Positions 37,310 to 37,576 of a stretch of DNA of 40,995 bases are shown here, in pieces. Source of the DNA: Enterobacteria phage FtMidnight; sequence record PP430152.1; one strand, written 5' to 3'. The notes under the pieces are model-generated. The model saw only the letters and a list, made by a program, of their open reading frames with translations, was not told the DNA's origin and ran no database searches. How positions within the stretch are numbered: position 1 is the stretch's first letter; every line of letters starts with the position of its first letter. Position numbers and translations under genes: made by a program.

Positions 37310-37576
37310 ATGGAAGCACAAGTAAAGGTATTAGGCGGCTTGCCTGTAACGGTAGCTTTCACAATCGCACCGGCTGACCCTGAAGTTGGTTATTTTCAAG
37401 ACGGTGTTGAAGATTGGGAAATTATCGAAATTGCAGGCCGTCCGCTTCGCAAGAAAGAATCAGCGAACTGGATTTATAACCGCTTGACAACGAATGATGA
37501 ACAACGTATTATTGAAGCATGTTCAAAAGCAATTGATGACTTTGAACCTGATTTTGATGAACCTGACTTTTACTAA
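37310..37576 (+). CDS. hypothetical acidic protein with C-terminal DDFEPDFDEPDFY tail
   Basis: 88 aa from ATG 37310 (RBS GAGGG); strongly acidic with a terminal aromatic residue. Confidence 0.45.
   Translation: MEAQVKVLGGLPVTVAFTIAPADPEVGYFQDGVEDWEIIEIAGRPLRKKESANWIYNRLTTNDEQRIIEACSKAIDDFEPDFDEPDFY

Follow-up and report, generated by a model that had tools for sequence, protein, structure and literature searches.

The Gene and Its Expression Signals

The DNA analyzed here (the window, 40,995 nucleotides of Enterobacteria phage FtMidnight, record PP430152.1) is an essentially complete siphovirus genome of ~41 kb with 46% G+C. It carries on its plus strand, at 37310..37576, a small gene whose product is predicted to consist of two modules, a compact alpha/beta domain of the YuA gp49 type and a disordered tail of acidic and aromatic residues. 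The open reading frame (ORF) runs from an ATG at 37310 to a TAA at 37574-37576 and encodes 88 amino acids (MEAQVKVLGGLPVTVAFTIAPADPEVGYFQDGVEDWEIIEIAGRPLRKKESANWIYNRLTTNDEQRIIEACSKAIDDFEPDFDEPDFY); with the stop codon included it forms the coding sequence of a PHROG 18992 member, as assigned from the ORF and from family and profile matches. In this tailed phage the gene is real and looks expressed, and the reading frame is beyond chance because 36-64% identity is kept across hundreds of independent contigs.

A Shine-Dalgarno sequence read directly from the DNA (GAGGG, 37298..37302, plus strand) lies 7 nucleotides 5′ of the ATG. The sigma-70-type promoter is on the same strand at 37245..37277, with TTGACA at 37245-37250, a 17-nucleotide spacer, and TATTAT at 37268-37273, extended to TATTATTGAA at 37268-37277. 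This near-consensus TTGACA-N17-TATTATTGAA arrangement matches 11 of 12 consensus positions, and the general architecture, TTGAC(A/G)-N17-TATTATTGAA, is found at five sites in the window (37245, 34274, 36360, and 37484 on the plus strand; 31010 on the minus strand). With at most one mismatch, the decamer TATTATTGAA occurs 10 times against 3.3 expected, a count reached by none of 100 shuffles. Three 98%-identical metagenomic relatives (L013-L015) have the core of the 37245 promoter unchanged, with substitutions in its flanks; they differ from the window at only five sites, too few to estimate the ratio of nonsynonymous to synonymous substitution rates (dN/dS). The match, the recurring architecture, and the retained core bear out the proposal of the initial annotation that the gene has its own promoter of the TATTATTGAA family.

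The same annotation described a small, strongly acidic protein of 88 residues with a repeated acidic-aromatic tail and a terminal Tyr, and both descriptions are accurate. The protein has a predicted isoelectric point (pI) of 4.14, 19 Asp/Glu against 8 Lys/Arg, and a net charge of -11, distributed unevenly: residues 1-44 contribute -6 and the segment PLRKKESANWIYNRLT +3; the sum over residues 1-75 is -4, and the remaining -7 is in the 13-residue tail. "Strongly acidic" therefore mainly describes the tail. The latter (residues 76-88, encoded at 37535..37573 on the plus strand) reads DDFEPDFDEPDFY and contains three Phe and one Tyr; it is an imperfect internal repeat, (D)F-E-P-D / F-D-E-P-D / F-Y, visible in the DNA as well, and the protein ends in DEPDFY.

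Predicted Fold and Family Membership

AlphaFold2 returned the same fold from an alignment of 19 sequences and from one of 110, the better model having a mean predicted local distance difference test (pLDDT) score of 79.7 and a predicted template modeling (pTM) score of 0.68. Strands at residues 2-7, 11-19, and 33-41 are followed by helices at 53-58 and 61-77, and the predicted folded domain spans residues 1-75 (37310..37534, plus strand). The domain is strongly conserved across the family, far more so than the sequence of the tail, and its invariant or near-invariant motifs are GGL (G9, G10, and L11), A-(E/D)-P-(D/E)-V-G (A22, E/D23, P24, D/E25, V26, and G27), an acidic pair followed by Trp ((E/D)(D/E)W, residues 34-35 and W36), G-R (G43 and R44), R-K (R47 and K48), W54, and R58. 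Confidence is low in the loop at residues 21-30, where the invariant 22-27 block averages only 51. The tail lies beyond the predicted strands and helices; in the first model pLDDT drops below 50 at residues 82-88 and in the second at 81-85, the last block averages 48, and the tail is accordingly predicted to be disordered.

The protein belongs to PHROG 18992, a widespread family of small phage proteins without assigned function; its residues 1-76 align with positions 3-75 of the 75-position profile (E = 6.1e-29, 101 bits). Family members were found by tblastn in 22 phage records, all annotated as "hypothetical protein" or left unannotated, from phages of Pseudomonas, Stenotrophomonas, Burkholderia, Variovorax, Rhodobacter, Sphingomonas, and Paracoccus; a profile search recovered about 675 metagenomic clusters at E ≤ 1e-3, all small stand-alone proteins. 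Longer homologues that might have been domain fusions (P0082, P0084, and P0096) were rejected as upstream read-through or frameshifted calls. The phage members of PHROG 18992 include KL1_00048 of Burkholderia phage KL1, XPA09712 of Pseudomonas phage LPPA15, XCB08950 of Stenotrophomonas phage QH3, and, in Rhodobacter phages, RcHartney gp56 and RcTitan gp58. They are 36-60% identical to the window protein, occupy the same genome position, and in most cases have the same kind of acidic/aromatic tail; even the copy in the nearest isolated phage is only ~60% identical.

A more remote relationship links the family to YuA gp49. The Pfam family PF20788 (YuA_Gp49) matches only the C-terminal half of the window protein, with 15.5 bits (E = 0.02) against a gathering threshold of 27 bits, and 61 of 110 family members match it at E ≤ 0.1, all below threshold (best E = 0.0019). 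The solved structure of Pseudomonas phage YuA gp49 (3PES) was recovered by a PDB profile search at E = 0.35 and by hhalign with 80% probability, and the predicted fold is the same. The protein thus belongs to a sister family of YuA_Gp49 and is not a member by Pfam's own criterion. A search of the viral fold database BFVD with the protein returned only uncharacterised members of its own family.

A Conserved Acidic and Aromatic Tail

Tail statistics were compiled from 122 retrieved homologues, 100 of which have at least four acidic and at least two aromatic residues among their last 12. The median tail is 10 residues long, with a net charge of -4 and three aromatics; the usual endings are NDYFDEPDYY, NDYYED, DDYYDDY, and EPDYDYDEPY, giving a family consensus of NDY(F/Y)DEPD(D/Y)Y or NDYYED. 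The last residue is Tyr in 67 homologues, Asp in 39, and Phe in two. The window tail is the most acidic seen (-7), with its internal FxEPD duplication, and is unusual in its aromatics: the family's tails contain 251 Tyr and 51 Phe in all, whereas the window copy uses Phe everywhere except at the last residue. Aromaticity therefore seems to outweigh a hydroxyl group or phosphorylation site. The possibility that the tail is a tyrosine-kinase pseudo-substrate, resembling the acidic Tyr clusters at the C-termini of bacterial tyrosine (BY) kinases, is disfavored for the same reason.

The tail occurs in phages of alpha-, beta-, and gamma-proteobacteria and is kept in distant homologues on other phage backbones, one of which (L049) adjoins ThyX and an exonuclease while two others (L055 and L056) lie on contigs of 43-65 kb without the marker genes. 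It is truly absent from RcTitan, Paracoccus phage R3, and a few metagenomic (IMG/VR) loci; in RcTitan and R3 there is no frameshift that could conceal one. Short linear interaction motifs are marked by just this pattern, a disordered segment keeping its composition while its sequence drifts, and because the tail is retained on unrelated backbones it is probably a functional motif of this kind. The conserved, disordered acidic/aromatic tail is a new result for the family.

Genomic Setting and Distribution

The left half of the window holds terminase and structural genes. A minus-strand replication module encodes a DNA polymerase (with a weak, sub-threshold family B match), a sliding-clamp homologue, a helicase, a Cas4-domain exonuclease, a DUF669 single-stranded-DNA-binding protein (SSB), and a MazG-like protein; a rightward early/middle block encodes a primase-polymerase, small ORFs, a VRR-NUC nuclease, the 88-residue protein, a dCMP deaminase, a DUF7303 protein, and lysis proteins. 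This is the backbone type of Septimatrevirus (phage 73 and Kakheti25), Kilunavirus (KL1), Titanvirus (RcTitan), and related Sphingomonas and Paracoccus phages. A megablast search of positions 36400-38300 against phage genomes gave no match, so no isolate is close at the DNA level; the same phage is present in three metagenome assemblies.

The position of the gene is constant: in almost all loci, from phage records and IMG/VR alike, it lies 3′ of the VRR-NUC gene and 5′ of a gene for dCMP deaminase, MazG, or DUF7303. Its presence is not. The DUF669 SSB of the window is 80-90% identical to proteins in 77 phage records, mostly Pseudomonas Septimatreviruses, yet within the Septimatrevirus group only LPPA15 and QH3 carry the gene for the 88-residue protein, and most Septimatreviruses lack it despite having the same replisome. 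The gene is accessory.

Directly 5′ of it, at 37090..37248 (plus strand), is a gene for a basic protein of 52 residues (PHROG 13844), which holds the same adjacent place in the four closest phages, LPPA15, QH3, KL1, and VCLv11; tblastn found no match to it in the other loci retrieved. The two genes form a possible cassette. The metagenomic call P0082 fuses both reading frames, probably because its start was mis-called. On a different backbone, a conserved ORF of 126-140 codons with the motif ITDRTIHKLAWDI and no PHROG match lies 3′ of the homologue and overlaps its 3′ end (L050, 10152-10574; L053, 8820-9212; L055, 10185-10565), and its product may be a functional partner of the homologue in that lineage.

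Two further sequence elements lie at or within the gene. Four tandem octamers (CATTGAAC, CATTGAAC, TATTGAAC, and CATCGAAC) at 37252..37286 on the plus strand run across the promoter spacer, the -10 element, and the probable transcription start and are a possible operator. The run is suggestive only, since the octamer is enriched across the whole genome (101 matches with at most one mismatch against 49 expected). Related copies flank the promoter at 36360. A second promoter-like TTGACA-N17-TATTATTGAA site lies inside the coding sequence (37484..37516, plus strand, in the codons for RLTTNDEQRIIEA), ~80 nucleotides 5′ of the next gene (37593..37784, for a small membrane protein). This site is a possible internal promoter and is not strictly conserved: in the 98%-identical relatives, a synonymous change turns its -10 element into TATCAT.

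Elsewhere in the early/middle block, a 219-residue protein (35704..36363, plus strand) matches the C-terminal ~100 residues of a primase family profile (PHROG 3022, positions 687-775), and PHROG 29311 matches both this protein and the C-terminus of the phage's own primase (31866..34202, plus strand, residues 670-768). These matches suggest that the 219-residue protein is a stand-alone duplicate of the primase C-terminal domain.

Acidic Tips on Other Proteins of the Phage

The sliding-clamp homologue (24252..25418, minus strand; 388 residues, PHROG 947) has a C-terminal extension ending in PEPFDPDKDIPF (FDPDKDIPF), which is the canonical acidic-tip motif of bacterial SSB. The tip is kept in the clamps of Kakheti25 (gp28, NYEDDIPF), QH3 (INEDDIPF), and RcTitan (gp29, YYDPDDEIPF) and is absent from those of Kimi, Eidolon, and Halfdan. 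No mention of a clamp carrying an SSB tip was found in the literature searched, and this feature may be of greater interest than the 88-residue protein itself. An acidic C-terminus closed by an aromatic residue is also seen in a third protein of the phage, encoded by a 54-codon ORF at 34609..34773 (plus strand), which begins MNVYQENGYENRRHY, ends NEDFDGLVTSLEDGF, and has no PHROG match. These two endings, each an acidic run with a terminal aromatic residue, together with the conservation of the clamp tip, point to a docking code used in this replisome.

The DUF669 SSB (28973..29653, minus strand) is built differently. It has a tail of ~95 residues, rich in Gln, Pro, and Gly and resembling the disordered linker of SSB, with no acidic tip; it ends in PWGQQ. 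Its relatives end in PWGQR (Kakheti25 and RcTitan) or GWGAR (Eidolon), so that W-G-x-R/Q may be a conserved C-terminal motif of another type. A "split SSB", in which the 88-residue protein would supply the tip lacking on the DUF669 SSB, was considered and rejected, because the SSB occurs in 77 records and the 88-residue protein in 22, and because the presence of a tail on the latter is not complementary to the clamp or SSB tails.

Possible Function

Tentatively, we infer that the protein is a partner-binding adaptor or competitor whose tail docks on a protein of DNA metabolism, at a site both basic and hydrophobic. There are precedents for docking of this kind: the tip of Escherichia coli SSB (MDFDDDIPF) docks on many client proteins (PMC7913777), and the acidic tail of T7 gp2.5 docks on a basic patch of T7 DNA polymerase, with the terminal Phe important (PMC12339929 and references therein). 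Under this model, host RNA polymerase would transcribe the gene early or in mid-infection, and the product would act through protein-protein binding and not through catalysis. The aromatic side chains of the tail would enter a hydrophobic pocket ringed by basic residues on the partner, as those of SSB and T7 gp2.5 tips do, while the folded domain might add a second, specific contact through the invariant AEPDVG loop and the R-x-x-R-K basic patch. The partner would most likely be a DNA-metabolism protein of the phage replisome or a host SSB client, to be either recruited or competitively blocked.

Several observations argue for docking. In the models a confidently predicted core contrasts with a tail predicted to be disordered, and the composition of that tail is conserved, with drifting sequence, on varied backbones and in phages of several proteobacterial classes. 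The invariant loop at residues 22-27 is modeled with low confidence, as is typical of surfaces that become ordered on binding. Synteny places the gene in a region of DNA and nucleotide metabolism; the breadth of hosts implies a binding partner conserved either across proteobacteria or within the phage backbone; and the phage's own clamp uses such a tail (DKDIPF).

Other observations weigh against it. The occurrence of the SSB in 77 records and of the 88-residue protein in 22 means that the latter is not a core replisome subunit. Presence of its tail neither complements nor tracks presence of the clamp tail. Strict mimicry of the SSB tip is unlikely: the window tail (DFDEPDFY) is not of the D-D-D-I-P-F type ending in Pro-Phe-COOH, that signature is lacking in the family, and 39 of the 122 homologues end in Asp (as in DYYED). 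RcTitan, R3, and YuA gp49 have no tail at all, and the folded domain must therefore be able to function alone.

This last point also supports a rival that we regard as doubtful, in which the tail is incidental (for example, an aid to solubility or a turnover signal) and function resides wholly in the YuA gp49-like domain. Several IMG/VR loci are likewise tail-less, and the domain is conserved far more strongly than the sequence of the tail. Neutral drift, however, would not be expected to preserve an acidic/aromatic composition in ~80% of members over such large distances and on such different backbones.

An unlikely explanation is that the protein binds nucleic acid and has a regulatory role, the basic patch G-R-P-L-R-K-K contacting DNA or RNA and the acidic tail folding back as an auto-inhibitor. 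Little or no variation is seen at R44, R47, K48, and R58, which adjoin a flexible acidic tail, and the gene lies in a DNA-metabolism region. Acidic tails that compete with nucleic acid have reportedly been described in Hfq and T7 gp2.5, and HMGB1 is a further example of an acidic tail that tunes nucleic-acid binding. The net charge is nevertheless strongly negative even without the tail, and the predicted fold contains no oligonucleotide/oligosaccharide-binding (OB), helix-turn-helix (HTH), ribbon-helix-helix (RHH), or other recognized nucleic-acid-binding architecture. Moreover, the tail-less RcTitan and R3 proteins keep the patch, and YuA gp49 has neither patch nor tail.

The accessory, patchy distribution among phages with a common backbone, the small size and low pI (4.1, net charge -11), the host-type promoter, and the wide host range of the family would all suit a DNA-mimic anti-restriction or anti-defense protein, its acidic surface and tail imitating the DNA backbone to block a host nuclease or defense complex, as Ocr, ArdA, Arn, and acidic anti-CRISPRs do. 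We consider this distinctly improbable: apart from the weak YuA_Gp49 hit there is no Pfam, NCBIfam, or PADLOC match, the folded domain has a small net charge (about -4 to -5) together with a basic patch that is invariant, and most of the negative charge is in a disordered tail of 10-13 residues, too short to imitate a stretch of duplex. A true SSB of the T7 gp2.5 type, for which the acidic tail with its terminal aromatic residue is the sole support, can practically be dismissed given a protein of only 88 residues, a predicted fold that is not OB and effectively refutes the idea, a DUF669 SSB already present in the phage, and a gene that is dispensable in close relatives.

The docking interpretation can be extended, though the extension is speculative and we would not expect it to hold: the tail could be an undescribed phage linear motif that plugs into the sites reading SSB-type tips, which the DIPF tip of the clamp would also address, the protein serving as a diffusible decoy or adaptor that rewires or shuts off the host SSB hub. 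If true, repair nucleases, helicases, and restart proteins would be affected in infected alpha-, beta-, and gamma-proteobacteria. A tail aimed at readers of SSB-type tips would be a compact, broad-host tool for perturbing a hub of bacterial genome maintenance, and the YuA_Gp49 fold, solved in 2010 and unannotated since, would gain its first function. The direct importance of the gene is modest, as it adds one more member to a widespread, uncharacterised family of small phage proteins. That family now has a defined two-module anatomy, a YuA gp49-like domain with a conserved acidic/aromatic tail, and its culturable members (KL1, LPPA15, QH3, the Rhodobacter Titanviruses, and Sphingomonas phages) make tail-deletion and pull-down experiments straightforward.

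Comparison with Known Systems

The structure of YuA gp49 (3PES) reportedly came from structural genomics in 2010, with no function assigned, and literature searches found no functional study of YuA gp49, 3PES, Septimatrevirus early genes, or SSB-tail mimics. In a multiple alignment YuA gp49 and the window protein have in common a G-(G/I)-(L/P) strand, EP, (E/D)W, GRP, a Trp, and an RI..A helix, and each gene is located where the early/middle region ends. YuA gp49 differs in having a 9-residue insertion after strand 2 and in lacking the AEPDVG loop, the RKK patch, and the acidic tail.

The initial annotation found the acidic protein and its tail reminiscent both of DNA-mimic anti-restriction proteins and of the tails of phage SSBs, and the two comparisons fared differently. 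With Ocr, ArdA, Ugi, and AcrIIA4 the protein has in common a similar size class, a low pI, a phage origin, and an accessory distribution, but neither sequence nor fold searches matched it to Ocr, ArdA, Ugi, or anti-CRISPR proteins, and PADLOC and NCBIfam gave no match. Structure prediction, proposed there as a check, yielded a compact fold with a disordered tail and no recognizable DNA mimic. Read from the sequence, the charge of the folded core is only -4 (family median -5) with an invariant basic patch, and seven of the 11 net negative charges are in the short disordered tail; the domain does not look like the rigid, DNA-shaped acidic surface of those proteins, and the likeness is not upheld.

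The comparison with phage SSBs stands for the tail and fails for the protein as a whole. Unlike SSB and T7 gp2.5, the protein has no predicted OB fold, no sign of DNA binding, and no Pro-Phe-COOH ending; its family prefers Tyr over Phe, and with a third of homologues ending in Asp, the terminal aromatic residue that is essential in T7 gp2.5 and SSB is not obligatory. The tails themselves are alike in being disordered, acidic, C-terminal, and aromatic-bearing, usually with an aromatic last residue, and this fair analogy gains weight from the conservation of the tail across the family.
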